Both the position numbers and the translations under genes were made by a program. Source: an uncultured delta proteobacterium (GTDB taxonomy: Bacteria > Myxococcota_A > UBA9160 > SMWR01). Taken from it: a stretch of 64,000 bases of DNA. A model generated the notes under the pieces. It had not been told where the DNA came from. It did no database searches and saw nothing but the letters and a program-made list of their open reading frames with translations. Shown here in pieces: positions 27,539 through 43,218 of the stretch. Position 1 is the first letter of the stretch. The number at the start of each line of letters is the position of its first letter. The stretch spans positions 416,001-480,000 of the forward strand of contig CAWHTE010000001.1 of NCBI GenBank assembly GCA_963832165.1, in the 5' to 3' direction.

Positions 27539-28711
27539 ATGCCCGAGGCCTTCATCGTTGGAGCCGTCCGCACGGCCGGTGGCCGCAAGAACGGCAAGCT
27601 CAAGAACTGGCATCCGATCGACCTCGGGGCCTTCGTGCTCGACGAGCTCGTCGCGCGCACGGGCGCCGACCCGGCGCTGATCGAGGACGTGATCTTCGGC
27701 TGCGTCGACCAGGTGGGCGCGCAGTCGGCCAACATCGCGCGCAATGCGGTGCTCGCCTCGCGCCTCCCCGAGAGCGTGCCCGGCACGACCGTCGACCGGC
27801 AGTGCGGCTCCTCGCAGCAGGCGCTGCACTTCGCCGCGCAGGCCGTGATGAGCGGCGTCCACGACGTGGTGATCGCGGGCGGCGTCGAGGTGATGAGCCT
27901 GGTGCCGATCGGTGGCAACGCGATCGCGGGCCACAAGGCCGGCATGGGCAGCCCGTACGGCCTCGGCATGAAGAAGCGCTACCCGGGTGCGAAGTTCAAC
28001 CAGTTCGCGGGCGCCGAGATGATCGCGGAGCGCTGGGGATTCTCGCGCGAAGACCTCGATCGCTTCGGTCTCACCAGCCACGAGAAGGCGGCGCGCGCGA
28101 CGCGCGAGGGCCGGTTCGCGCGCGAGATCGTGCCCGTCGAGGTGACGCTCGAGGATGGCACGAGCGAGAAGTTCGCGGCCGACGAGGGCATTCGCGCCGA
28201 CGCGAGCCTGGCCGCCATGGCGGCCTTGAAGCCGCTCTCCGAGAAGGCGCTGCTCACGGCCGGAACGTCGAGCCAGATCACCGATGGCGCGGCCGCCGTG
28301 CTCGTCGCGAACGAAGCCGGTCTCGCGAAGCTCGGTGCGACTCCGCGTGCGCGCATCGCCGCAATGGCGCTCGCGGGCGACGACCCCGTGATCATGCTCA
28401 CGGCACCGATCCCGGCGACCGCAAAGCTGCTCCAGCGCGCGGGCATGTCGATCGACCAGATCGATCGCTACGAGGTGAACGAGGCGTTTGCGTCGGTGCC
28501 GCTGGCCTGGCTGCGCGACACGGGCGCGGATCCCGAGAAGCTGAACGTGAACGGCGGAGCCATCGCGCTCGGCCATCCGCTCGGTTGCACGGGCGCGAAG
28601 CTCATGACGACGCTCTTGCACGAGCTCGAGCGCATCGGCGGGCGCTATGGGCTCCAGACGATGTGCGAGGGCGGTGGGCTCGCCAACGCGACGCTGATCG
28701 AGCGCGTCTAG
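27539..28711 (+). CDS. Acetyl-CoA C-acyltransferase (thiolase)
   Basis: DRQCGSS, NEAF, GGAIALGHPLG and MCEGGG. Confidence 0.95.
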   Translation: MPEAFIVGAVRTAGGRKNGKLKNWHPIDLGAFVLDELVARTGADPALIEDVIFGCVDQVGAQSANIARNAVLASRLPESVPGTTVDRQCGSSQQALHFAAQAVMSGVHDVVIAGGVEVMSLVPIGGNAIAGHKAGMGSPYGLGMKKRYPGAKFNQFAGAEMIAERWGFSREDLDRFGLTSHEKAARATREGRFAREIVPVEVTLEDGTSEKFAADEGIRADASLAAMAALKPLSEKALLTAGTSSQITDGAAAVLVANEAGLAKLGATPRARIAAMALAGDDPVIMLTAPIPATAKLLQRAGMSIDQIDRYEVNEAFASVPLAWLRDTGADPEKLNVNGGAIALGHPLGCTGAKLMTTLLHELERIGGRYGLQTMCEGGGLANATLIERV

Positions 28712-30321
28712 AACCGGCCCTCGACCGACAGCCCCGCGGCCCAGAGGAACCCCTCGAACGCGACGGCGCCCGTGATCGGGCGGCCGTCCGGTCGGGCGGC
28801 CGCGAACGGATCGCGATTCGAGGTGAATCCGAGCGTCGCGAAGTTGCCGTCGGCGTCCTGATAGGTTGCGAGCCCGCCGAGGTTCTGGCTGCGCCCCTCG
28901 CCCACGCGTCGCGTCTCGTAGACCGCGGCCTGGAAGCCGGCCACGAGCCGCACGCCGCGCCGATTCCGACCCCCCCAGTGATAGGCGACGCCCGTCGAGG
29001 CCAGATGGCGGTTGGACGAGAAGCTGATCGCGTCGAGGTGGCCCTTCGAGACCACGCTGGGGTCGTACACGTAGCCGACGAGCAGATCGATCGACGAGGT
29101 CGCATTCCACTCGACGCCGGTGCGGACCGCGACGGTGTCGCGCATGTCGTAGTCGAGCACGAGCGAGCGGATCGCGTCACCGGGCGCGGCCCGCGCGGCG
29201 GGATTGATCGGCTGCAGCGCCGGAGCGAGTGCCGCCGGCAGCGCGACGAGCCCCGGCGACAGGCGCACCCGTGCGTCGGAGCCGAGACCGCTCGCCGCGC
29301 TCCACTGCGTCCATTGCAGATCCACCGACCAGGTGACCCGATCCACGACGTCCCATGCGAAGCCGCCCTGGAGGTGTCGCGGCATCTCGAGCACGAGCCG
29401 ATAGCGGGAGCGGCTGTACTCGGGCAGCACACCGAATCCGGCCGACGGGTCGATCCGCAGCGCGACGTCGCCCTCGAAATCGACCGGCGTCTCCTCGCGG
29501 TAGGCGAGGCCGAACGCGAGCCCGTCCAGCAGCCGATAGCGCAGCCCGAGCGTATAGCCCGCGGATCCGAAATCCGATTCGAACTTTCCGACGCCGAGCT
29601 CGGCCGAGTCGTCGCTGCGCAGAGAGAGGGCCCCGTCGTCGCCCCCGTCGATCGTCGCCGCAGCCGGCACCGCCTCTCCGGTGGCGAAGCTCGCGGCCTG
29701 TCCGACGAAGCCGTCGCCCAGGAACGCGTCGATGCGGAGCCTGTCGAACGCCACCCAATCGAGGGTCGCGCCGACCGAGAGCCGCTCGCTGAGCCGGACA
29801 GCCAGCGACGGCGCGAGCTCGAGCACGAACAGCGACTGGTTGCGGCTGTTGAAGCGATGGAAGCCGCGGTCGCTCCAATCGGCCGTGATCGCGAACGGAG
29901 CTCCGAAGCCGATCCCGAACACGACGCGGTCCGAGAACGGCAGCCGCTGCGCGCTGTCGAGAGCCCCGAGCGGAAAATAGGCACCGAGGCTGGGCGCCAC
30001 CGCGACGTCGGAGCCCCCGAGCGTGTGCTCGGTCTCGTGGTCGCCCTCTGCATCGGAGAAGATCAGCGGGCGCGTATCGATCACGCGCACATGGACGCCG
30101 ATCTCCGGCGCTCCCAGATCGCCTGCACCGGCGGGGTTGTAGTACCAGGACGACGGATCGCCGCCGCGCGCGGTGACGGCCCCACCTAGCAGCGCGGACC
30201 GCTCGCCCATCCCGATCGTCTGAATCCAGTCGGCGCGCGCGCCCGCGGCGAGCGCGACCAGCGCGGCGGTGACCCAGCACGCGGGGTGGAGCGATCCACG
30301 GACCCGACTCGCGAATCTCAT
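28708..30321 (-). CDS. FadL/TodX-family outer-membrane channel for hydrophobic compounds
   Basis: Signal peptide, hatch motif YYNPAG, GIGFGAPF, beta-strand pattern and C-terminal Phe. Confidence 0.85.
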   Translation of the reverse strand: MRFASRVRGSLHPACWVTAALVALAAGARADWIQTIGMGERSALLGGAVTARGGDPSSWYYNPAGAGDLGAPEIGVHVRVIDTRPLIFSDAEGDHETEHTLGGSDVAVAPSLGAYFPLGALDSAQRLPFSDRVVFGIGFGAPFAITADWSDRGFHRFNSRNQSLFVLELAPSLAVRLSERLSVGATLDWVAFDRLRIDAFLGDGFVGQAASFATGEAVPAAATIDGGDDGALSLRSDDSAELGVGKFESDFGSAGYTLGLRYRLLDGLAFGLAYREETPVDFEGDVALRIDPSAGFGVLPEYSRSRYRLVLEMPRHLQGGFAWDVVDRVTWSVDLQWTQWSAASGLGSDARVRLSPGLVALPAALAPALQPINPAARAAPGDAIRSLVLDYDMRDTVAVRTGVEWNATSSIDLLVGYVYDPSVVSKGHLDAISFSSNRHLASTGVAYHWGGRNRRGVRLVAGFQAAVYETRRVGEGRSQNLGGLATYQDADGNFATLGFTSNRDPFAAARPDGRPITGAVAFEGFLWAAGLSVEGRF

Positions 30322-30456
30322 TCCGGGCCTCGATATCACAGCCGGTCCCGAAATGCCCCATCGACGGCCGGACCGAGTTGCGTGCTCTGCGTCCTAAAGT
30401 GCGCCGTCGAAACGTCCGAACTAATAGCGCTATCATTTTTCGCGGGGAGGGGAACC

Positions 30457-31648
30457 GTGGTCCTCCAGGAACCCCAGGCCACCCACGACATCGTCCAGCG
30501 GCTGCGCGAGACCGAAGACCGCTTCAAAGTCATGGCGGATTCCTCGCCCGTGATGCTGTGGATGTCCGCGCTCGACTCGAACTGTTACTTCTTCAACAAG
30601 CCGTGGCTCGATTTCACCGGCCGCACCTTGGAGCAGGAGGTCGGATCCGGCTGGTGTGAGGGGGTCTACTTCGAGGACTTCCAGCACTGCATCGATACCT
30701 ATCTCGACCACTTCAACGCGCGCCAGCCGTTTCGGATGCGCTACCGCCTGCGCCGACACGACGGCGAGTATCGCTGGCTCCTCGACACGGGCGTCCCACG
30801 CTACTCACCCGACGGCACCTTCATGGGCTTCGTCGGTTCGTGCATCGACATCCAGGAGATGGTCGAGGCGAGCGAAGCGCTCGCGAACCTGAATGCGACG
30901 CTCGAGCGCCGAGTCGAGGAGCGCACCGCGCAGCTCGCCGACGCGAACCGCGAGCTCGAGAGCTTCGCCTACAGCGTCTCGCACGATCTGCGCGCTCCGC
31001 TGCGCCAGATTGGCGGTTACGCGGAGCTGATCCGAAAGGAGCTCCCGGTCGAGCTCGTGAAGGGAACGCTCGAGCGCTATCTGGGCTTCCTCCAGGAGGG
31101 TGCCGATCGCGCGCAGGCGCTCGTGCGCGACGTGCTCGAGTTCTCGCGGGTGTCTGGGGCCGGGCTCCAGCCTGCAGCGCGTGGCGCTCGCGCCGCTCGT
31201 GGCCGAGCTGCAGCGCATGCTGCCCCCCGAGAGCCGGAAGGCGTCGATCCGGTGGGAGGTCGCGGAGCTGCCCGAGGTGACCGGCGACGCGACGCTCTTG
31301 CGCCTCGTCTTCCAGAACCTGCTCGAGAATGCGCTCAACTTCACCGAGAAGCGACCCGAGACCGTGATACGCGTGTGCCACTCCGAGAAGGACGGCGAGC
31401 ACGTCTTCGGGATATCCGACAACGGGATCGGCTTCGATCCGACGCAGTCGCATCGCCTGTTCAAGCTCTTCCAGCGCCTGCACGCGCAGGAGGAATGCGG
31501 TGGCAGCGGGATCGGACTGGCCAACGTCGCGCGGATCGTGAAGCGCCACGGCGGCCGGGTGTGGGCGGAGGGCAAGACGGGGGAGGGCGCGACGTTCTAC
31601 TTCGCGCTTCCCACCGTATCCGCAGGCGAGTCGGAATCGGCGGATTGA
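30457..31648 (+). CDS. Cytoplasmic PAS sensor histidine kinase with a +1 frameshift at about 31170
   Basis: PAS (FNKPWLDFTG...RRHDGEYRW), H-box YSVSHDLRAPL, then in the next frame NLLENA, DNGIGF and GSGIGL. Confidence 0.88.
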
Positions 31649-31660
31649 AATCGGGACGGA

Positions 31661-33196
31661 TTGGCGATGCTTCCGCGAGACTCGTGGTTGGATCTGGCGC
31701 GCAAGCTCGACTGGACGTACCGCTACGTTCCGGAGTCGGAGCTCTTTCCCGACGCTCCGAGCGGTGTGACGCGGGTGCCGCCGGAAGCGTGGAAGGAATG
31801 GGACGAGCCGTTCAAGACCAGCTACCGCGAGTACGTCGCCGCCCAGAGTGAGAAGGAGCGCGCGGTGCGCGCCGTGCGCGATGCGGTCGGCCGCCCCGAG
31901 CACGCAGCGCGTCTCCCGCTTCCGTGGCTGAACGTCAACAAATTCCACGGCGCCACGCTGCCGCTCGCCGAGTTCGCGGCCACGATCGGCAACCTGCGCG
32001 CGGGCCGCTTCGGGCGCGACAGCGCGTGGCGCACGATGGCGCTGTTCGGCGCGCTGGACGAGTTCCGGCACACCCAGATCCCGCTGCTCGTGTTCCACGA
32101 TCTCGTGAAATGGGATCCGCAGTTCGACTGGGTGCACCGCTTCTATCACACCAACAACTGGGTGGCGATCGCGGCGCGGCACTTGATCGACGAGCTGCTG
32201 CTCGCCGCGAATCCCGTCGAGTTCGCGATCGGCACGAACTTCGTGTTCGAGACCGGCTTCACGAACCTCCAGTTCGTCGCGCTCTCGGCGCTCGCCCGCG
32301 ACGCAGGCGACCCGATGTTCGAGACGATGGTGAAGAGCATCCAGACCGACGAGGCGCGCCACGCCCAGATCGGCCGCGCCGTGCTCGAGATCCTCGTCAA
32401 GAACGATCGCGAGTACGCACAGCACCTCGTCGACAAGTGGTTCTGGCGCAGCTGGCACCTGTTCAGCGTGCTGACCGGATTCAGCATGGACTACCTGACG
32501 CCGCTTTCGGCGCGGCGCGCGTCGTTCAAGGAGTTCATGGAGGAGTGGGTCCTCGACCAGTTCGTCGAGGTGCTCGACGCCTACGGGCTGTCCCGGCCCT
32601 GGTACTGGGAAACCTTCGTGCGTTCGCTCGACCACTACCATCACATGGTGTACGCGAGCGCCTACACCTATCGAGCGACGGTCTGGTTCGACCTGGTGGT
32701 GCCCGGTCCGGAAGAGCGCGCTTGGCTCGCCGAGAAGTACCCCGCCTCGTGGCCCTCGCTCGCTCCGGTCTGGGACCGCGTCGACGCGGGCTGGCGCGAG
32801 AGCGACCCGGATCTCGACTTCGCCGCGCACGGCTCGGCGATCGTCACGTTCTGCGACACCTGCCAGCTCGTGCTCTGCGAGGGAACGCCCACGCGCAACA
32901 GCGCCGAGACGCTCGTGCACGGCGAGCGCAAGTACATCTTCTGCTCGGAGCCGTGCCGCTGGATCTTCGAGCAGGAGCCCGAGCGCTACGCGGGCCACCG
33001 CGACGTGGTCAAGCGCGTGCTCGCGGGCGAGGCGCCCGGAAATCTCGCCGCGATCTTGACCCAGTACTTCGGGCTCACTCACGAGACCTGGGGGCGCGAC
33101 GCCTACCGCGGTCGATACGACTGGCTCGAGCGCCCGGCGAAGCCGACGCCGACGCTTCCCACTGCCGCAGAGGCACCCGACGAGCGCCGGCCATGA
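31661..33196 (+). CDS. tmoA: Soluble di-iron monooxygenase hydroxylase alpha subunit (TmoA/TouA/XamoA-like) with YHS domain
   Basis: N-terminus MAMLPRDSWLDLARKLDW, WDEPFK, LDEFRH, FETGFTN, TDEARH and FCSEPCRWIF. Confidence 0.92.
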   Translation: MAMLPRDSWLDLARKLDWTYRYVPESELFPDAPSGVTRVPPEAWKEWDEPFKTSYREYVAAQSEKERAVRAVRDAVGRPEHAARLPLPWLNVNKFHGATLPLAEFAATIGNLRAGRFGRDSAWRTMALFGALDEFRHTQIPLLVFHDLVKWDPQFDWVHRFYHTNNWVAIAARHLIDELLLAANPVEFAIGTNFVFETGFTNLQFVALSALARDAGDPMFETMVKSIQTDEARHAQIGRAVLEILVKNDREYAQHLVDKWFWRSWHLFSVLTGFSMDYLTPLSARRASFKEFMEEWVLDQFVEVLDAYGLSRPWYWETFVRSLDHYHHMVYASAYTYRATVWFDLVVPGPEERAWLAEKYPASWPSLAPVWDRVDAGWRESDPDLDFAAHGSAIVTFCDTCQLVLCEGTPTRNSAETLVHGERKYIFCSEPCRWIFEQEPERYAGHRDVVKRVLAGEAPGNLAAILTQYFGLTHETWGRDAYRGRYDWLERPAKPTPTLPTAAEAPDERRP

Positions 33197-33456
33197 GCGT
33201 GCTCATCCCGCTGTACGGATTCCTCGAAGGCGACACGATCGGGTTGATCGTGCTCGCGCACGACGACGATCCGATCGCGCGCGTGATCGCGAAGCTCCAG
33301 CACTCCGCGCGCTGGCGCGTGGCGAAGCTCGAGAACGCGCGCGCGTACCACGCCGGCCGAGAGCTCGACTCCGCGCAGACCGTGGCAGAGGCCGGGCTCA
33401 CGCCGCTCGAGCGGATCGACGTGCGCAGGGCGGGGGACGCGGGCGATGCTCCGTGA
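33193..33456 (+). CDS. tmoB: Monooxygenase gamma subunit (TmoB-like)
   Basis: IPLYGFLEGD...TVAEAGLTPLERIDV; ATGA overlap with the alpha subunit. Confidence 0.85.
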   Translation: MSVLIPLYGFLEGDTIGLIVLAHDDDPIARVIAKLQHSARWRVAKLENARAYHAGRELDSAQTVAEAGLTPLERIDVRRAGDAGDAP

Positions 33457-33760
33457 CGCGGCAGCCCTCGACGAGCTCCGGATCGGCGAGATGAAGGGCG
33501 TCGTGCTCGATGGCCGGCCGGTTCTGCTCGTCCGGCTCGACGATGGCGTCCGTGCGTATGCCGACCGCTGCTCGCACCAGGGCGTTCGCCTCTCCGAGGG
33601 GCGGCTCGACGGGACGCACCTCACCTGCCATGCGCACGAGTGGCTCTACGACGCAGCGACGGGCCGCGGCATCAACCCGGCCTCCTGTGCGCTCACGGCG
33701 TATCCGGCCGAGGTACGCGCGGGCCGCATCCTCGTCGACCCCGAGGCCGGCGCGCGATGA
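33446..33760 (+). CDS. tmoC: Rieske ferredoxin (TmoC-like)
   Basis: DRCSHQ...TCHAHEWLYDAATGRGINP. Confidence 0.9.
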   Translation: MLRDAAALDELRIGEMKGVVLDGRPVLLVRLDDGVRAYADRCSHQGVRLSEGRLDGTHLTCHAHEWLYDAATGRGINPASCALTAYPAEVRAGRILVDPEAGAR

Positions 33761-34050
33761 GTCGCGGACGCGCCGGACCCGATCTGCTCGCGGGCACGCT
33801 CGGCCTCGCCGTGATCGACGCGCTGCGCGAGGACAATCCGGCGCTCGAGGTGCGCGATTGGGGGGCCTTTCTGCGCGCCTCCGCGCCCGCGCGCTGCGTG
33901 CTGCGGCGCGCCACGGTCGAGCGGCGGCTCGGCGAGCCGTTCCAGCTCCCGGGCGACCTCGAGCGGATCATGCCCTCGTGTCAGGGGCGGATCTCGTTCG
34001 CAGAGGATGAAGTGGTGTGGGCGGCCGAGTCCCGGGTGCCGGTGAAATGA
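33757..34050 (+). CDS. tmoD: Effector/coupling protein (MmoB/DmpM, TmoD-like)
   Basis: AGPDL...AVIDALREDNP...LERIMPSCQGRI. Confidence 0.85.
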   Translation: MSRGRAGPDLLAGTLGLAVIDALREDNPALEVRDWGAFLRASAPARCVLRRATVERRLGEPFQLPGDLERIMPSCQGRISFAEDEVVWAAESRVPVK

Positions 34051-34959
34051 GCAAGCGCCGCACCTACTGGCATCTCGAGGGCAGCGAGCGCGTGCCGACC
34101 GAGTACGAGATCGCCACGTCGCGCATCCTCTACTACGCGGGTCGCGGTTTCGAGATCGATCTGCCGCTCTCGAGCTGGTACGAGCGCTACCAGCAGGGCT
34201 CCGCGTTCACGTGCGCCAACCCGGAGGGTTGGGAGGCGTTCCGCGATCCGCGCGCTACCACCTATGCGCGCTATGCGATGATCCAGGCCACGAAGGAGGC
34301 GCACGTCGACGCGCTCTTCGATTCGATCGAGCGCAGCGACACCGATCGGAGTCAAAGCGCCGCGTGGCTCGCGGTGCTCGAGCAGGTGCTGCCGCCCGCG
34401 CGATATCTCTTCCACGGCCTCCAGATGGCCAGCCTGCTACGTGGCACAGATGGCGCCGGCGGGGCGGATCGCGATCTGCGCGATGTTCCAGGCCGCCGAC
34501 GAGATGCGGCGCCTGCAGCGCTTCGCCTACCGCATGGCCCTCGTGCGCCGCGCAGTGCCGCGCTTCGGCGACGGCGCGCGGCACCTCTTCGAGGAGCTTC
34601 CCGCGTGGCAGGGCGCGCGCGAAGCACTCGAGCGATTGCTCGCCACCTACGATTGGGGCGAGGCCTTCGTCGCGTTGAACGGTGTTCTGAAGCCGCGCAT
34701 CGACGCGTTCTTCGGCGGGGCGTTCGCGCGCGCAGCTGCCGCCGCGGGCGAGCCGCTGTGGGTCGAGATCCTCGGCTCGCTCGACGAGGACTCCGCGTGG
34801 CATCGCAACTGGAGCAGCGCGCTCCTGGCGTCGTCCGATGCGCGCGCGTCGGTAGACGAGTGGAGACTCAAGTGGGGCGCGCTGGCAGAGCCTGCGATCA
34901 AGGGGCTCGAATCGCTGCTGACGCCGGCCTCGGATGCGCTCGCGGCGGACGCGCGATGA
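34047..34959 (+). CDS. tmoE: Monooxygenase beta subunit (TmoE-like) with a +1 frameshift at about 34433
   Basis: RTYWHL...PTEYEI, WEAFRDP and RYLFHGLQM, then in the next frame YVAQMAP...FQAADEMR, YDWGEAF and LDEDSAWHRNWS. Confidence 0.88.
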
Positions 34960-35336
34960 GCGCGCTGCGGATCCTGCTCGTCGAAGACAGCGTGGCGGAT
35001 GCCGTGCTCACCCAGCGCGCGCTCGAGGTCGGCGGAGCTGGGCAATTCGCGCTCAGCGTCGCGGCTTCGCTCGGGGAGGGCATCGACCGCCTCGCGCAGG
35101 GCTTCGATGCGATCCTGCTCGATCTCACACTGCCCGACAGTGTCGGGCCCGAAACGGTGACGCGGATGCGGGTCGCGGCGCGCGAGCTGCCGATCGTCGT
35201 GCTGTCGGGCGTCGAAGATGCGGAGACGGCCGACCTCTGTCTGCGCGCGGGCGCGGTCGCCTACCGACCGAAGGGGCGCATCGACGCCGTCGAGCTGCGG
35301 CGGATCGTGGAGGGTGCGATCGGGCCCGGGCGATAG
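34956..35336 (+). CDS. Single-domain response regulator (receiver only)
   Basis: ILLVEDS, LLDLTLPDS, VVLSG and YRPKG; ATGA overlap with the beta subunit. Confidence 0.9.
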   Translation: MSALRILLVEDSVADAVLTQRALEVGGAGQFALSVAASLGEGIDRLAQGFDAILLDLTLPDSVGPETVTRMRVAARELPIVVLSGVEDAETADLCLRAGAVAYRPKGRIDAVELRRIVEGAIGPGR

Positions 35337-35354
35337 TAGATCCAGACCGAGAAT

Positions 35355-37796
35355 GTGGCGGAAGCGCCGCAAACCTCTTGGGGGAAGATCGTGGAATTCT
35401 TCAGCGAGTTCATGCCGCACGGGCATTGTTATGCGTGGACGCCCTCGATCTTGTGGGCGTCGGTGCTCTCCGACGTGACCATCGCCATCTCCTATTTCTC
35501 GATCCCGATCGCGCTGCTCTTCTTCATTCGCAGACGCGACGACCTCCCGTTCAGCTGGATCTTCGCGCTGTTCGGCGTCTTCATCCTCGCGTGCGGGACC
35601 GGTCACGTCCTCGAGGTCTGGAACACATGGCACGGCGCCTATGGGGGGCAGGCGATCGTGAAGGTGATCACGGCCGTCGCGTCGATCGGGACCGCGGTGG
35701 CGCTGTGGCCGCTCTTGCCGCGTGCGCTCGCGTTGCCGAGCCCGCGGCAGCTCAGTGAGGCGAACGAGTCGCTGCGCGACGAGATCACGATCCGCGAGCA
35801 GGCCGAGGGTGCGCTGCAAACGCAGGCGCGCGAGCTCGAGGTGGCGCGCGATGCCGCGCAGTCGGCGAGTCGGGCGAAGAGCCAGTTCCTCGCGAACATG
35901 AGTCATGAGATCCGGACGCCGCTCAACGCCGTGATCGGCCTGTCGGAGATCCTGCTCGACACCGATCTGACCGAGGGCCAGCGCGATCATCTGCGAACCG
36001 TGATCGATTCGGGCGACGTGCTGCTCACGGTCGTGAACGACATCCTCGACTACTCCAGGATCGAAGCCGGCAAGATCGAGCTCGAGAGCGTGGTATTCGA
36101 CCTCGACGACGTGGTCGGCGACACGCTGCGCTCGCTCGCGGTCCGCGCCGAGCACAAGGGCATCGAGCTCATGTGTCAGCTCGATGCCGACGTGCCGAGG
36201 GCGCTGCGCGGCGATCCGGGCCGGTTGCGGCAGGTGATCTCGAACCTGGTCTCGAACGCGATCACGTTCACCGAGCGCGGCGAGGTCGAGGTGCACGTGG
36301 CGCGCGAGGCCGAGGGCGTGCTTCGCTTCAGCGTGCGCGATACCGGAATGGGCATCGAACCCGGCGACATCGACCGGTTGTTCGAGTCGTTCGAGCAGGC
36401 CGACAAGTCGTCCTCGCGGCGCTTCGGCGGCACGGGCCTCGGCCTCTCGATCAGCCGCGGTCTCGTCGCGTTGCTGGGAGGGAAGATCAGCGCGGCGAGC
36501 ACGCCGGGCGTGGGCAGCACGTTCACGTTCACGGCGAAGTTCGAAGAGCTGGAGGCCGCGCCGCTCGAACCCGCGCGCCAGGCGATTCCGCTCGCGGGCA
36601 CGCGCGTGCTGATCGTCGACGACAATCCCACCAACCGGGTGATCCTGTTCACGCTCGCTCGGCGCTGGGGGATGGAGCCGGTTCCGTGTTCGTCCGCGGC
36701 CGAGGCTCTGTCGGTGCTCCGGCAGGTCGGGGAGGGCGGCGACCGCGTGCCGCTGCTGCTGCTCGATCTGCACATGCCCGGGACCGATGGCTTCGCGCTC
36801 GCGGCGCGCATCCGCGCCGACGCCGCGCTCGACGATCTCTCGATCGTGCTGCTCACCTCGGCCGGCATGGCCCAGGACCTGCGCCGCTGCGAGGAGCTCC
36901 GGATCGCCGCACGGCTCATGAAGCCCGTGAAGGAGTACGAGCTCTACGACGTGGTGGCGCGCGTGCTCGGCCACCGTTCGGCGAGTGCTCACGCGAACGC
37001 GGCGCGCCGCGCCTCGATGGCGACGGGCGCTCGCGCCTCGGGATCGATCGCGCTCGGCTCGCAGCGGATCCTGCTGGTCGAGGACAGCGTTCCGAACCAG
37101 AAGGTCGCGCTCGCGATCCTGCAGAGCCACGGGCACACCGTGGTGATCGCGAACGACGGCCAGGAGGCGGTCGGATTGTTCACGGCCCAGGAATTCGACG
37201 CGATCCTCATGGACATCCAGATGCCGGGCATGGACGGCTTCGCCTGCACGGCCGCGATTCGCTCCGCGGAGTTCGGCACCAACCGGCACATTCCGATCAT
37301 CGCGATGACGGCGCACGCGCTGGCCGGCGACCGCGAGAAGTGCCTGGCGGCCGGCATGGACGACTACGTTTCGAAGCCGATCCGCCGCGAGGATCTGCTC
37401 GGCGCACTCTCCGCGGCAATCCAGCACACGCGCGGCGTGGTCGACTTCTCGGGGGTCCTGTCCCAGCTCGGCGACGACCGCGAGGCGCTGCGCGACGTCG
37501 TCTCCGCCTACGTCACCGAGACGCGCGAGAACCTGGAGCGCCTGCCCGCGACGATCGCGTCGGGTACGTGGAAAGAGGTGCGCCGGTTGGCCCACACCAC
37601 CAAGAGCGCGATGCGCGTGTTCGGCGCGCACGAAGCGCAGCAGCTCGCCGAGAGCCTCGAGCAGCTGGCTCAGATGGAAGACCGCAGCACTGCCGCCGAT
37701 CTGTACCTGCGCATGAAGAGCGCGGTCGAGGGCGTGGTCGAGGTGTTGGCGCGCTTCGCGAACACGGGGGTGATGGACACGCGCGAGGCGCGTTAG
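35355..37796 (+). CDS. Hybrid sensor kinase: ETR1-type ethylene-binding domain, HisKA, HATPase, REC, REC, HPt
   Basis: [13 protein letters not shown]...[12 protein letters not shown] three-TM domain; [18 protein letters not shown]; two receivers (LDLHMP, MDIQMP); HPt LAHTTKS. Confidence 0.92.
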
Positions 37797-38260
37797 CTCG
37801 CACCCTCTTTCCGGCGCGCGCGGCGCCGCCGGCGCTTCGATTGCAGCATCCGGTGGTCGACGTCGATCAGGAACGGCCCCGCGAGTGCGGCGCGGCCGAG
37901 CAGCATGCGGTGGATCATCTTCGCGCGGTCGACCAGGCCGACCTCGATCGTCTTCTCGACCCCGCCGAGTCGCAGCGTCGTCTCCACGAACAAGCGCTGG
38001 GCGAGCTCGCCGTTGCTCGAGCGCACGCGGGACCGGCGCTTGACGTGGGCGTGCACGTGAACGTGGAGATCGCGTTTCTCGCGGTGCAGCACGACGTCGA
38101 ACCGCACGATGCCGCGCGGCTGCTCGCGGATGTTCTCGACGTGGAGCGCGCTGCTGCGCGCACCGGTGTCCACCTTGGCGAGGAGCCGCCGCACCCCCCA
38201 GTCGGGGAGGTCGACATACTCCGTCCATCCGATCAGTACCGGGGTGCGCCGGGCCTTCAC
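37793..38260 (-). CDS. RimK-associated retropepsin-like putative protease
   Basis: [26 protein letters not shown] and MLLGR. Confidence 0.85.
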
Positions 38261-38331
38261 GGGCGCGATTGTAGTCGTCCCGCGAGCGGCTATCTTGCTT
38301 GGTCGCTCGACTAAGTTGAGACTTTCCCCCT

Positions 38332-39507
38332 ATGCACGTCGACTACACCCCGGAGCAGAAGGCGCTGCGCGCCGAGCTGCGCGCCTACTTCGGCAAGCTC
38401 GTGACACCCGAGCTGCGCTCGAAGCTCCACGGTCTCGAGACGAGCCCGCTTCACAAGCAGGTAATCCGCCAGATGGGCCGAGACGGCTGGCTCGGCGTCG
38501 GCTGGCCCGTCGAGTACGGCGGCCAGGGACGCACCGCGATCGAGCAGATGATCTGGTTCGAGGAGGCGCGCCGTGCGGGGGCGCCGATCCCGTTCGTCAC
38601 GCTGAACACGGTCGGCCCGACCCTGATGGCCACGGGTAGCGAGGCGCAGAAGCAGAAGTTCCTGCGCGCGATCCTCGCGGGCGAGATCCACTTCGCGATC
38701 GGCTACTCCGAGCCCGATGCGGGCACCGACCTCGCTTCGCTGAAGACCAGCGCCGTGCGCGATGGCGACCACTACGTGGTGAACGGCACCAAGATCTTCA
38801 CGAGCGGCGCCGACGCCGCGGACTACGTCTGGCTCGCGGTGCGCACCGATCCCACGGTGCCCAAGCACAAGGGCATCTCGATCCTGATCGTCGACACGAA
38901 GCTGCCCGGGTTCTCCCACGCGCCGATCTACACGCTCGGAGGCGGCCACACCAACATGACCTACTACGAGAACGTGCGCGTTCCGGTGGACATGGTGGTC
39001 GGACAGGAGAATCAGGGCTGGGGCCTGATCACGATGCAGCTCAACCACGAGCGGATCGGTCTCGCGGCGTTCAGCAGCTATGCGCAGCGGCTCTTCGACG
39101 AGACGGTCGAATGGGCGCGCAAGACCGAAGCCGAGGACGGCCGGCCCGTCGGCGAGAAGCCCTGGGTGCAGTCGTGCATCGGCGAGGCACACGCGCGGCT
39201 CGAGGCGATGAAGGTGTTCAACTGGCGGATGGCCTGGGAGCTCGAGCGCGGCAAGCTGAACCCCGCAATGGCCTCGGCGGCGAAGGTGCACAGCACCGAG
39301 GCCGTGATCGAGGTCTATCGGCTGCTGCTCGAGGTCGTCGGAATGCCGGGTGCGATGCGTCCCGGCTCGGCAGGCGAGGTGCTTCGCGGCGAGCTCGAGA
39401 CCGAGTGGCGTCACTGCCAGATCAACACCTTCGGCGGCGGCGTCAACGAGGTCCAGCGCGAGCTGATCGGCATGTTCGGGCTCAGACTGCCGCGCGCGGC
39501 GCGCTAG
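38332..39507 (+). CDS. Acyl-CoA dehydrogenase (ChsE2/FadE29-like)
   Basis: FAIGYSEPDAGTDLASL, QLNHER and INTFGGGVNEVQR. Confidence 0.88.
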   Translation: MHVDYTPEQKALRAELRAYFGKLVTPELRSKLHGLETSPLHKQVIRQMGRDGWLGVGWPVEYGGQGRTAIEQMIWFEEARRAGAPIPFVTLNTVGPTLMATGSEAQKQKFLRAILAGEIHFAIGYSEPDAGTDLASLKTSAVRDGDHYVVNGTKIFTSGADAADYVWLAVRTDPTVPKHKGISILIVDTKLPGFSHAPIYTLGGGHTNMTYYENVRVPVDMVVGQENQGWGLITMQLNHERIGLAAFSSYAQRLFDETVEWARKTEAEDGRPVGEKPWVQSCIGEAHARLEAMKVFNWRMAWELERGKLNPAMASAAKVHSTEAVIEVYRLLLEVVGMPGAMRPGSAGEVLRGELETEWRHCQINTFGGGVNEVQRELIGMFGLRLPRAAR

Positions 39508-39512
39508 ATCGT

Positions 39513-40472
39513 ATGACTCCCGAAGCGCTGCGCGCGGGTCTCGACGCGTGGGTCGGCCGCGAAGGCGAGCCCGCCGCCGCGCGAGACGCGGTGAACCCCG
39601 CGATGATCCGCCACTGGTGCGACGCCGTGGGCGACGACAATCCGGTTTATACCGATCGGGATTTCGCCGCGAAATCCGTGCACGGCGCCATCGTGGCCCC
39701 GCCCACGATGCTCCAGGCCTGGACGATGCGCGGCGTGCGCCCGCCGAAGCCGGCATCGACGCAGAAGGATCCGGTGTCCGAGGTGATGCATCTGCTCGAC
39801 ACGGCCGGCTACACGTCGGTGGTCGCGACCAACTGCCGCCAGGAATACCGCCGCTACCTGCGCGAGGGCGATCAGCTGAGCGTCGGCACGCGTGTGTCCA
39901 AGGTCTCCGACGAGAAGAAGACCGCGCTCGGCGTGGGGCGCTTCGTCGACGAAGAGATGATCTACCGCGATGCCGCGGGCGAGGAAGTCGCCCGGATGAC
40001 CTTCCGCATCCTGAAGTTCAAGCCGCCCGCGGCGAGCCAGGCGGCTCCCGCACCGGCAGCGGATCCGAAGCCGCGCCGTCGACCGCGCCCCGCGCGCTCG
40101 CAGGACAACGCCTTTTTCTGGGAGGGCGTCGCGGCCGGTGAGCTCCGCATCCAGCGTTGCACCGCTTGCCGTGCGCTGCGCCATCCGCCGGGCCCGATGT
40201 GTTCGCGCTGTCAGTCGCTCGACTGGGACTGGAGCGTCGCGAGCGGGCGCGGACACGTGTTCAGCTTCGTGGTGGCCCACCACCCGCCCGTGCCTCCGTT
40301 CACCTATCCGAACGCGATCGCGCTGATCGAGCTCGACGAGGGCACGCGGCTGGTGTCGAACCTCGTCGGGATCGATCCCGCGGACGTCGAGATCGGCACG
40401 CGCGTGCGCGTCGAGTTCACGCGCGTCGACGACGAGCTGGTACTCCCTCTGTTCCGGCCCGATTCCAACTGA
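39513..40472 (+). CDS. MaoC-like dehydratase fused to DUF35 Zn-ribbon/OB-fold (ChsH2-like)
   Basis: VNPAMIRHWCDAVGDDNP, APPTMLQAWTM, FFWEG and CTAC...CSRC. Confidence 0.9.
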   Translation: MTPEALRAGLDAWVGREGEPAAARDAVNPAMIRHWCDAVGDDNPVYTDRDFAAKSVHGAIVAPPTMLQAWTMRGVRPPKPASTQKDPVSEVMHLLDTAGYTSVVATNCRQEYRRYLREGDQLSVGTRVSKVSDEKKTALGVGRFVDEEMIYRDAAGEEVARMTFRILKFKPPAASQAAPAPAADPKPRRRPRPARSQDNAFFWEGVAAGELRIQRCTACRALRHPPGPMCSRCQSLDWDWSVASGRGHVFSFVVAHHPPVPPFTYPNAIALIELDEGTRLVSNLVGIDPADVEIGTRVRVEFTRVDDELVLPLFRPDSN

Positions 40473-40493
40473 AATTCCAATCGGAAGGAAGCC

Positions 40494-41612
40494 ATGGATT
40501 TCTCCCCCTCCGAAGAGCTCGTCGCGCTGCGCGATCTCGCGCGCCAGATCTTCGCCGATCGCGTGACCCACGAGCGCCTGCTCGCGCTCGAGAAGAGCGG
40601 CGAGTGGTTCGACAACGAGCTCTGGAGCGAGCTCGCGCGCGCGGGCCTCACCGCGCTCGCGATTCCCGAGGCGAACGGCGGCGGCGGTCTCGGCGCAGAG
40701 GAGCTCTGTGCGGTCTTCGAAGAGCTGGGCCGCCACACCGCACCGGTGCCGCTGTTCGCGACGGCGGTGCTGGGCGCGCTGCCGATCGCAGAGTTCGGCA
40801 CCGCGGAGCAGCGCGAGCGCTGGCTGCGCCCCGTGGCCGAGAGCGGTGCGGTGCTCTCCGCGGCGCTGCTCGAGTACGCGAGCAGCGAGCCGGGTGCGCC
40901 GCGCACGCGGGCCGTGCAGAGCGGTGGAGTGTGGCGGCTCGACGGCGAGAAGCACTGCGTGCCCGCCGCGGATCGCGCGAGCGCGATCCTGATTCCCGCG
41001 CGCACGCCCGAGGGCGTGACCGTCTTCGTGGTCGATCCGAACGCGGCCGGCGTGTCGCTCGAGGCGCAGGTGGCGACCCATCGCGAGCCGCAGTGGCGCG
41101 TGCAGCTCTCGAGCGCGCCCGCCGAGGAGGTGCTCGGTGCGCCGGGCCAGGGCGAGGCGATCGTCGCGTGGATCGCCGATCGCGCTGCGCTCGCGCTCGC
41201 GGCGATCCAGATCGGTGTCGCCGAGGAGGCCATGCGCCGGACCGCGCTCTACATCACCGAGCGCAAGCAGTTCGGCAAGGCGATCGCGACGTTCCAGGGG
41301 GTCACGCTGCGCGCGGCCGACGCGTGGATCGACGTCGAGGCGATGCGCAGCGTCGTGATGCAGGCGGCCTGGCGCGTGGCCGCGGGTCGGCCCGCCACCG
41401 CTGCGATCGCAACCGCGAAGTGGTGGGCCGCCGTGGCGGGCTCGCGCGTGGTGCACACGGCGCAGCATCTGCACGGCGGAATCGGGTCGGACCTCGAATA
41501 CCCGATCCACCGCTTCTTCCTCTGGTCGAAGCAGAACGAGCTCCTGTTCGGCGGCGCACGCCAGCAGGCGGCTCGACTCGGCGCCCATCTGCTGGGCGCG
41601 AACGCGGCCTAG
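40494..41612 (+). CDS. Acyl-CoA dehydrogenase partner subunit (ChsE1/FadE28-like)
   Basis: RKQFGKAIATFQ and HLHGGIG; lacks the usual SEP FAD motif, as partner subunits do. Confidence 0.85.
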   Translation: MDFSPSEELVALRDLARQIFADRVTHERLLALEKSGEWFDNELWSELARAGLTALAIPEANGGGGLGAEELCAVFEELGRHTAPVPLFATAVLGALPIAEFGTAEQRERWLRPVAESGAVLSAALLEYASSEPGAPRTRAVQSGGVWRLDGEKHCVPAADRASAILIPARTPEGVTVFVVDPNAAGVSLEAQVATHREPQWRVQLSSAPAEEVLGAPGQGEAIVAWIADRAALALAAIQIGVAEEAMRRTALYITERKQFGKAIATFQGVTLRAADAWIDVEAMRSVVMQAAWRVAAGRPATAAIATAKWWAAVAGSRVVHTAQHLHGGIGSDLEYPIHRFFLWSKQNELLFGGARQQAARLGAHLLGANAA

Positions 41613-41614
41613 GC

Positions 41615-42037
41615 GTGAGCGCCGTACACCGCCAGGCGACGCTGCGCTACGACGAGGTCCAGCCCGGCGATGCGCTACCCGCGCTCGAGGTTCCGATCAC
41701 GGCCACGGTGATCGTGTCGGGCGCGATCGCGTCGCGCGACTACCAGGACGTGCACCACGACGCCGAGCTCGCGCGCCAGCGCGGCTCGAAGGACATCTTC
41801 ATGAACATCCTGACCACGAACGGCTTCGTGGGCCGCTACGTCACGGACTGGGCCGGACCCGAAGCGCTGCTGCGCAGCGTGGACATCCGACTCGGCGCTC
41901 CGAACTATCCCGGCGACACGATGGTGTTTTCCGGCACGGTCGCCGCGAAGCGCGACGGCGTCGTGACGATCGCGGTGCGCGGTGCGAATCAGCTCGGCGA
42001 CCACGTGACGGGTCAGGTCGAGATCGCGCTGCCATGA
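41615..42037 (+). CDS. MaoC-family hydratase (ChsH1-like)
   Basis: SRDYQDVHHD, KDIFMNILT and YVTDWAGP. Confidence 0.9.
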   Translation: MSAVHRQATLRYDEVQPGDALPALEVPITATVIVSGAIASRDYQDVHHDAELARQRGSKDIFMNILTTNGFVGRYVTDWAGPEALLRSVDIRLGAPNYPGDTMVFSGTVAAKRDGVVTIAVRGANQLGDHVTGQVEIALP

Positions 42038-43218
42038 AATCGCTCGCGAGCCAGTTGAAGGACAAGGCGGCGATCGCCGGAATCGGTGCCACCGAGTTTT
42101 CGAAGGACTCGGGGCGCAGCGAGCTGCGCCTTGCGGTCGAGGCGGTCCTGGCCGCGCTCTCGGATGCGGGTCTCACACCCGCGGACGTCGACGGGATGGC
42201 GACGTTCACGATGGACAACAACCCCGAGATCGAGGTGAACCGCTACCTCGGCGGCGGCGACCTGCGCTTCTTCTCGCGCACGCACTACGGCGGCGGCGCC
42301 GCGTGCGCGCCGATCCTGCACGCGGCGATGGCCGTGGCCACGGGCGTGTGCGACGTGGTGGTGTGCTACCGCGCGATGAACGAGCGCTCGCAGCAGCGCT
42401 TCGGCATCGGCGTGCAGGACCGCCCGCCGGCTCCGCGGCCCGAGGAGATCCACTTCGGCTGGCATTCGCCCTACGGCCTGCTCACGCCCGCGTCCTGGGT
42501 CGCGATGAACGCGCAGCGCTACATGCACGAGTTCGGCGCCACCACCGAGGACTTCGGCCGCGTGTCGGTCGCCGATCGCAAGCACGCGGCCACGAATCCG
42601 GCCGCGTGGTTCTACGGCAAGCCGATCACGCTCGAAGATCATCAGAGCTCGCGCTGGATCGTCGAGCCGCTGCGCCTGCTCGATTGCTGCCAGGAGAGCG
42701 ACGGCGCGGTCGCGGTGGTGGTGACGAGCCTCGAGCGCGCGCGCGACCTGCGCCAGCCGCCGGTGCGGATCGCCGCGGCGGCACAGGGCGCCACCACCGA
42801 TCAGCAGATGATGACGCGCTACTACTCCGAGCAGATCACGGGGCTGCCCGAGATGGGACTCGTCGCCGGGCAGCTCTACGCCACCGCGGGGATCGGCCCC
42901 GCCGACGTGCAGACGGCGGTGCTCTACGATCACTTCACGCCCTTCGTGCTCCCGCAGCTCGAAGAGTTCGGGTTCTGCGGGCGAGGCGAGGCGAAGGACT
43001 TCGTGCGCGCGGGCGAGATCGAGCTCGGCGGGCGCCTGCCGATCAACACGCACGGCGGCCAGCTCGGCGAGGCCTACATCCACGGCATGAACGGGATCGC
43101 CGAGGGCGTGCGCCAGGTGCGCGGCACCTCGGTGAATCCGGTGCCGAACGTCGAGCACGTGGTCGTGACTGCGGGCACGGGCGTGCCGACGAGCGGGTTG
43201 ATCCTGGGCCGCGTCTAG
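42034..43218 (+). CDS. ltp2: Thiolase-like aldolase / lipid-transfer protein (Ltp2-like)
   Basis: GIGATEFSKDSGRSE, LLDCCQESDG, LYDHF and GGQLGEAYIHG. Confidence 0.88.
   Translation: MKSLASQLKDKAAIAGIGATEFSKDSGRSELRLAVEAVLAALSDAGLTPADVDGMATFTMDNNPEIEVNRYLGGGDLRFFSRTHYGGGAACAPILHAAMAVATGVCDVVVCYRAMNERSQQRFGIGVQDRPPAPRPEEIHFGWHSPYGLLTPASWVAMNAQRYMHEFGATTEDFGRVSVADRKHAATNPAAWFYGKPITLEDHQSSRWIVEPLRLLDCCQESDGAVAVVVTSLERARDLRQPPVRIAAAAQGATTDQQMMTRYYSEQITGLPEMGLVAGQLYATAGIGPADVQTAVLYDHFTPFVLPQLEEFGFCGRGEAKDFVRAGEIELGGRLPINTHGGQLGEAYIHGMNGIAEGVRQVRGTSVNPVPNVEHVVVTAGTGVPTSGLILGRV

Follow-up and report, generated by a model that had tools for sequence, protein, structure and literature searches.

The stretch of DNA analysed here (64,000 nucleotides, hereafter the window), from an uncultured delta proteobacterium, encodes a hybrid histidine kinase whose ETR1-type domain is intact, placed in a probable operon, as judged from gene spacing, with a reductase-less di-iron monooxygenase and a PAS kinase. 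The explanation that we consider likely is that this kinase binds Cu(I) together with ethylene or another small alkene and relays the signal to an adjacent receiver, the monooxygenase operon being loosely linked to it. The ETR1-type receptor family is already known, whereas the operon context and the architecture are new, and this is the only case found of an ethylene-type receptor sharing a gene run with a widespread reductase-less monooxygenase module. In the open-access literature, from which most subscription journals are omitted, no paper was found that joins an ethylene receptor to a di-iron monooxygenase, nor any paper on a reductase-less, kinase-linked monooxygenase clade. The monooxygenase operon directly upstream of the kinase had been missed in the initial annotation (Table 1).

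Table 1. Features of the gene run in the window; kinase residues are numbered from GTG 35355.
Feature	Position	Strand	Remarks
PAS-HisKA-HATPase kinase	30457..31648	+	conserved companion of the monooxygenase clade; frame break near 31160-31170
Group-1 (toluene-type) soluble di-iron monooxygenase, alpha subunit	31661..33196	+	E104, E134, H137, E197, E231, H234; T201, N202, Q228 kept
Monooxygenase gamma subunit (TmoB family)	33193..33456	+	Pfam
Monooxygenase Rieske ferredoxin	33446..33760	+	Pfam
Coupling/effector protein (MmoB/DmpM family)	33757..34050	+	Pfam
Monooxygenase beta subunit	34047..34959	+	frame break near 34431; no reductase gene after
Single-domain receiver, no output domain	34956..35336	+	start overlaps beta stop
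ETR1-type hybrid histidine kinase, EBD-HisKA-HATPase-REC-REC-HPt	35391..37796	+	801 aa; 813 aa from alternative GTG 35355
MPHGHCY (residues 20-26), family-wide N-terminal motif	35412..35432	+	its Cys lost with C80 in degenerate paralogs
Ethylene-binding domain ETR1_N, three membrane helices	35448..35735	+	D40, Y47, I50, P51, I77, C80, H84, K103
Conserved downstream gene, flank outside the island	37793..38260	+	overlaps kinase stop; no Pfam or NCBIfam match

In the translation from GTG 35355, the N-terminal region features three hydrophobic segments and the residues D40, Y47, I50, P51, I77, C80 and H84. Pfam recognises ETR1_N over residues 32-127 (127 bits against a cut-off of 27, E 2.8e-37), the sole match of this kind in the host genome, which is 89% complete. 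Among the counterparts of these residues in Arabidopsis ETR1, Y32 is the one which we take to be the seventh required residue. I35, P36 and I62 are named as essential for ethylene binding in PMC6586836, C65 and H69 are named in PMC9603746, and a copper site of D25, C65 and H69 together with a D25-K91 bridge is described across 1,221 sequences (PMC10266040). The domain was compared with AzoEtr1, whose sequence was taken from the Azospirillum brasilense Sp7 plasmid and has the same length, 525 aa, as in PMC11819568. Identity reaches 62/129 positions (48%), and all seven residues match gap-free with a constant difference of +5, D40, C80, H84 and K103 aligning with Azo D35, C75, H79 and K98, and Y47, I50, P51 and I77 with Azo Y42, I45, P46 and I72. 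By way of the equivalence between Azo D35/C75/H79/K98 and ETR1 D25/C65/H69/K91 given in PMC11819568, the offset to ETR1 amounts to +15 for D, C and H, and to +12 for the helix-3 lysine K103, a residue absent from the initial annotation; the Asp25-Lys91 pair of ETR1 is present as D40 and K103. The exact spacing of the seven residues claimed in the initial annotation is thus confirmed, and the alignment holds under the Pfam profile. The accompanying claim of a constant +15 offset stands for D, C and H through AzoEtr1, while Y47, I50, P51 and I77 keep the same +5 to AzoEtr1.

The true start is probably GTG 35391, giving 801 aa, because the called protein (P0001) and its close homologues begin there; in that numbering the residues become D28, Y35, I38, P39, I65, C68, H72 and K91. 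The AlphaFold2 model, built on a 68-sequence alignment, predicts three long helices at 18-48, 55-80 and 84-105 (35391 numbering) with a mean pLDDT of 93.8. A PDB search by sequence and fold returned no match, and no solved receptor domain surfaced for comparison. Relative to the metagenome locus L020, the ethylene domain shows a dN/dS of 0.15. The sequence evidence supports the first proposal, namely that a non-cyanobacterial host carries a complete hybrid kinase with a candidate domain for Cu-dependent ethylene binding; conserved residues alone do not fix the identity of the ligand.

The rest of the chain was also found intact, in agreement with the first reading. Behind ETR1_N, Pfam orders HisKA (174-239), HATPase_c (286-397), two receivers and Hpt (715-791), and the phospho-acceptors H184, D471, D620 and H747 are all present in the 35355 numbering. 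With the H box, the ATP-binding boxes, the receiver Asp and the HPt His in one chain, the protein is an unorthodox His-Asp-His hybrid kinase. Identity with BarA, TorS or ArcB was ruled out, as the kinase scores under all the NCBIfam equivalog cut-offs shown.

The standing of the receptor within its family was judged from a domain search that gave 491 matches among 827 candidates, the figures below referring to the best 120 of these 491. All seven residues are kept in 115 of the 120, so that their integrity, which had been presented as special, is the family norm. The MPHGHCY motif, reported as an additional feature ahead of the first transmembrane helix, does lie at residues 20-26 and yet is no extra: PHGxC occurs in 115/120, [ML]PHGHC[YF] in 95/120 and the exact MPHGHCY in 74/120, and AzoEtr1 carries PHGVC. 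The idea of MPHGHCY as a unique second metal site fails on uniqueness for the same reason. No PAS or GAF domain was matched by Pfam in the kinase, which agrees with the claimed wiring; as a peculiarity the wiring does not hold, since in 51 of the 120 homologues the H box follows within 90 residues of the domain, and 30 of these 51 lie outside the close group P0001-P0021 (with the patterns used, the H box could not be located in 21 homologues and the domain end in 14). The full REC-REC-HPt tail is rarer, an Hpt domain being found in 14 of the 120, 13 of these close relatives.

In agreement with the initial annotation, the host does not look cyanobacterial: a search of the 89%-complete genome for photosynthetic reaction-centre genes found none, and members of the 90% clusters to which two window proteins belong carry the names 'Deltaproteobacteria bacterium' and 'Myxococcota bacterium'. 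Near-identical pieces of the window occur in the soil metagenome runs X1 and X2. Such a host is nothing unusual for this domain, as many proteobacteria as well as cyanobacteria carry it with diverse outputs (PMC7700396), and non-cyanobacterial receptors have been published, one of them, AzoEtr1, having been tested (PMC11819568). Our scan of GTDB contigs with an ethylene domain yielded one cyanobacterial locus only. The window receptor is a sound and expected member of a known family, of lower surprise than first claimed, and by itself adds one more candidate to a family of more than 1,000 aligned members (1,221 in PMC10266040).

The kinase closes a same-strand run of genes (30457-38260 with the downstream flank) whose successive gaps are 12, -4, -11, -4, -4, -4, 18 and -4 nt. 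No plus-strand terminator-like site was detected in 30200-38400, and the promoter scan gave 1 site against 0.5 expected. The single-domain receiver just upstream of the kinase is the likely partner of the kinases, and no DNA-binding regulator is encoded in the island. The gene at 37793..38260 is regarded as flank rather than island because it also occurs in genome G005, which is without the island. Divergently from the PAS kinase, a FadL/TodX-family outer-membrane channel (Pfam Toluene_X) is encoded at 28708-30339 (-). Its role as a dedicated substrate channel was rejected on grounds of conservation: whole in the window, the gene is reduced to a fragment in genome G004 and is absent from L020, which has a small receiver gene in its place. 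Downstream (38332-43218) follow genes for acyl-CoA dehydrogenases, for an OB-fold/hydratase-like protein and for a lipid-transfer/thiolase-like protein whose cluster members bear the names of steroid side-chain degradation enzymes.

The monooxygenase belongs to group 1, with a five-gene order of alpha, gamma, ferredoxin, coupling protein and beta, and all six iron ligands intact. Its alpha subunit shares 40-44% identity with the toluene, the isoprene and the propene enzymes (Py2 39.8%, IsoA 40.9%, aromatic enzymes 43-44%), and the pocket residues are not diagnostic. Group-1 enzymes include oxidisers of propene, isoprene and isobutene (PMC11825192), and the window alpha probably falls among the uncharacterised subgroups A/B that are outlined in the same paper. 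The clade is large, with 1,519 matches at E <=1e-50 among 8,000 scored candidates; some alpha subunits are longer (P0137, P0216 and P0234, 588-683 aa), P0137 being fused to a gamma (TmoB) domain. Three more distant di-iron alpha genes, 24-30% identical to that of the window and belonging to other groups, were noted (L011-L013) in the complete genome G047, which belongs to the same order.

To describe the surroundings of this clade, the best 80 of 393 metagenome loci (ranked by alpha, and including the near-duplicates L023/L024, L082/L083 and L087/L089/L090) were taken together with G004 and G348, 82 loci in all. A locus counted as informative with at least 1000 nt beyond beta; 47 of the 82 were shorter and were left out. 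In all 35 informative loci a kinase with the same PAS adjoins the monooxygenase on the same strand, 31 times after beta and 4 times before alpha. Pfam analysis of 53 flanking ORFs from 17 loci revealed mostly PAS-PAS-HisKA-HATPase proteins, behind which receivers, receiver-kinases, a GGDEF/EAL protein or a sigma-54 regulator often come next. The PAS beside HisKA stays constant; variation lies in the first PAS and in the type of H box. A reductase is the last gene of characterised group-1 operons (PMC11825192) and of the two plasmid group-1 operons compared here, whereas two reductase queries matched neither the window nor any of the 82 loci, the two plasmid operons detecting each other as a control. 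One weak FAD_binding_6 gene lies elsewhere in the host genome. Ten queries for catabolic genes likewise drew no match from the window or the 82 loci, and the 89%-complete host genome gave no match for catechol 2,3-dioxygenase, DmpE/G/H or a close epoxyalkane:CoM transferase.

The ethylene domain and the monooxygenase were seen together at three loci, namely the window (G000), G004 (same genus, alpha 86% identical) and L020 (alpha 86%), in each as one uninterrupted same-strand run, and the pairing is limited to one genus-level lineage. The domain is absent from 23/23 loci with alpha below 75% identity and at least 3 kb downstream, and monooxygenase genes occur in 0/15 other ETR1_N loci (175,386 nt). 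A general linkage of the domain to the monooxygenase clade was consequently dismissed, L020 being the only case among the 80 metagenome loci and G348 having none. In the host's family the domain is found in 3/44 genomes and the monooxygenase in 2/44; in the class, ETR1_N exceeds the cut-off in 14/225 genomes, 12 of these 14 without the monooxygenase, and the monooxygenase occurs in 2/225; and in the phylum sample it occurs in 2/401. Both monooxygenase-bearing genomes of the class have it in one gene run with an ETR1-type kinase, which in G004 comes directly after beta, in the slot occupied by the cognate kinase in 31 of the 35 informative loci. These two observations lean against the loose linkage assumed in the preferred explanation, and functional coupling of receptor and monooxygenase is possible.

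As regards origin, dS is 0.39-0.48 for the island and 0.39-0.47 for the flanking genes, and since the two are equal a single inheritance fits. At G005, without the island, dS is only 0.51-0.59; values may be near saturation at 70% GC, which would make the dating weak. The nearest outside relative of the kinase is found in G006 (same genus, 77% complete), on short contigs and beside a different kinase cluster that is 73.5% identical over 3.6 kb to one upstream of the same thiolase in G005; G006 was left out of the dN/dS table, with only 11 codons aligned and a frame slip. Related receiver/hybrid-kinase clusters are located at L101:1266-5803 (G005, just upstream of the thiolase) and at L015:2334-6961 (G006), and the thiolase region seems to collect signalling modules in the genus. 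Contigs of equal size (P0020 with the Rieske protein P0314; P0004, P0007 and P0248 with the thiolase) suggest further copies of the island. The pairing probably represents one evolutionary event, a single acquisition kept under selection.

One alternative is that the island is a decaying module with the receptor as a passenger. Two single-base frame breaks, in the PAS kinase (near 31170) and in beta (near 34431), would speak for decay, as would the internally deleted remnant of the canonical kinase in G004 and the unrelated genes that G005 (99% complete) holds at the site, between the thiolase and the downstream flank. The breaks are, however, probably assembly errors, because soil contigs near-identical to the window are one base shorter across both (X1 record 2, X2 record 10; X1 record 4 is one base shorter and otherwise no different) and neither the PAS kinase gene nor the beta gene is broken in G004 or L020. 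Moreover, dN/dS across the island genes is 0.08-0.26, indicating purifying selection. Decay is thus largely refuted, and we regard it as highly improbable.

A more ambitious alternative treats the island as a two-channel alkene system, in which the ETR1-type kinase senses the gas, the monooxygenase draws on a housekeeping reductase to oxidise that gas, and the kinases converge on shared receivers; oxidation would either reset the receptor or yield a product read by the PAS kinase. This would accord with the unbroken run in three loci, with the possible further copies, with a clade wired to signalling (a PAS kinase in 35/35 informative loci, no reductase or catabolic match) and with a group of enzymes that includes propene, isoprene and isobutene oxidisers (PMC11825192). 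There is also a precedent for oxidising first and sensing afterwards, as the epoxide, and not ethylene, induces the Mycobacterium etn genes (PMC11197473). Nevertheless, the pairing belongs to one lineage, being seen at neither the 23 distant monooxygenase loci nor the 15 other ETR1_N loci, alpha is no closer to alkene than to aromatic enzymes, and the thiolase region gathers unrelated kinase clusters in the genus. We consider this reading unlikely, and the same goes for its extension, a two-channel sensor of volatile alkenes in a soil Myxococcota lineage, with a plant-type copper ethylene receptor on one transcript with the monooxygenase and a copper-less paralog that tunes or re-targets the signal. 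If true, it would constitute the first ethylene receptor coupled to a ligand-consuming enzyme, and would indicate what a large uncharacterised monooxygenase clade acts on.

The paralog was found in G004, where an 800-aa kinase directly after beta (L014:6178-8613) has the changes C25S, Y47F, I50L and C80L while keeping D40, P51, H84 and K103. It is followed by two receivers and by the remnant of the canonical gene, 134 aa at L014:9405-9809, in which the first helix of the canonical domain is joined to the HPt end; this remnant reflects an internal deletion or an assembly collapse between two paralogs. P0018-P0021 share the paralog changes, except for an Ile at position 50 in P0021. In a quick tree of 124 columns the five paralogs come together as one clade on a long stem (SH-aLRT 100); its sister is the set of canonical island domains, and both lie in a genus-level group supported at 97. 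They are 77-82% identical to each other, and the paralog domain is 57% identical to the canonical one. The occurrence of P0018 and the canonical P0010 on equal-sized contigs suggests that both paralogs can share one contig. Among the best 120 of the 491 homologues, both C25 and C80 are present in 115, neither in 4, and they are split in 1. Their joint loss hints that PHGxC and the copper site are functionally tied; as this loss was probably a single event, it does no more than hint. The paralog may act as a modulator without copper, or may sense another ligand. A second and more eroded ETR1-like domain, without equivalents of D, C, H and K, was observed in G006 (L018:3-863), in a related kinase whose contig ends inside the gene.

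This paralog, conserved in the lineage without C25 and C80, implies that the scaffold signals in other ways too, and so bears on a further alternative, that the domain binds copper while kinase activity is set by a Cu(I) ligand other than ethylene (CO, an isocyanide, a thioether or a larger alkene) or by copper occupancy alone. In line with that, binding data exist for only a few bacterial or fungal receptors (PMC11819568), and a similar Cu site is described in an organosulfur olfactory receptor (PMC10266040). On the other hand, every known ethylene determinant is in place, as is the D-K pair, and the 48%-identical AzoEtr1 binds ethylene, which leaves this alternative with a rather poor chance.

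In the preferred explanation, by analogy with ETR1 and AzoEtr1, Cu(I) would be held by C80 and H84, aided by D40, in a dimeric membrane domain; for AzoEtr1, the first 130 residues bind ethylene (PMC11819568). Ethylene binding would shift helix 3 through the D40-K103 pair, and helix 3 would lead on directly, by way of a coiled coil, into the HisKA helix. A dimer disulfide may be made by C25, as suggested for the single N-terminal Cys of cyanobacterial receptors (PMC6682694). The ligand probably turns the kinase down, following the inverse-agonist model set out in the discussion of PMC11819568 and the analogy with ETR1, SynEtr1 and AzoEtr1. Phosphate would then run from H184 to D471 and D620, to H747 of the HPt domain and on to the small receiver, the presumed partner. 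Since no DNA-binding regulator exists in the island, the output is probably at the protein level (motility, attachment, second messengers) or goes through a regulator encoded elsewhere. Kinase and monooxygenase would represent two separately mobile sensory modules brought together by one ancestral juxtaposition, probably with a shared transcript and shared receivers, and not an obligatory pair.

The pairing may link gas sensing to gas oxidation, and it gives a first guess, C2-C4 alkenes, at the substrate of an enzyme clade without a tested member; should the coupling be mere juxtaposition, the finding is ordinary. The lineage also contains, beside the canonical domain, a paralog of 57% identity that has lost both Cys and kept Asp, His and Lys; this natural pair offers a ready comparison for the roles of copper and of the PHGxC cysteine.

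Among known systems, T4MO/ToMO (TmoABCDEF), the Xanthobacter Py2 alkene monooxygenase and the isoprene monooxygenase resemble the window operon in gene order, iron ligands and about 40-44% alpha identity. They differ in that the window operon has no reductase gene and no catabolic genes nearby, a PAS kinase adjoining instead; in comparison with the Xamo/Etn/Iso alkene-catabolism operons, adjacent epoxide-processing or ring-cleavage genes are also missing. Another example is EtnR1/EtnR2-EtnABCD of Mycobacterium NBB4, likewise a sensor linked to a di-iron monooxygenase operon and a gaseous alkene; there, however, the epoxide is sensed by MEDS/CdaR-type proteins and a growth pathway is activated, with neither an ETR1-type domain nor a histidine kinase involved (PMC11197473).

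Arabidopsis ETR1 and Synechocystis SynEtr1 (slr1212) share with the window protein ETR1_N, the D/C/H copper site, the D-K pair and a kinase output, whereas its loop before helix 3 is shorter by 3 residues than theirs. ETR1 has a GAF domain, and SynEtr1 differs by its GAF light sensor and by signalling to the regulator slr1213. ETR1 signals mainly through a Ser/Thr kinase (PMC11819568), and plant receptors have two N-terminal Cys against one in the window protein (PMC6682694). AzoEtr1/AzoRR-etr1 of A. brasilense Sp7, as described in PMC11819568, is alike in the three-helix domain, the seven residues, the helix-3 Lys, PHGxC and the histidine kinase, and also in having an adjacent single-domain receiver without an output domain (AzoRR-etr1). 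AzoEtr1 contains a PAS domain and neither receiver nor HPt, while the window kinase dispenses with PAS, carries a REC-REC-HPt tail and stands behind a monooxygenase operon.
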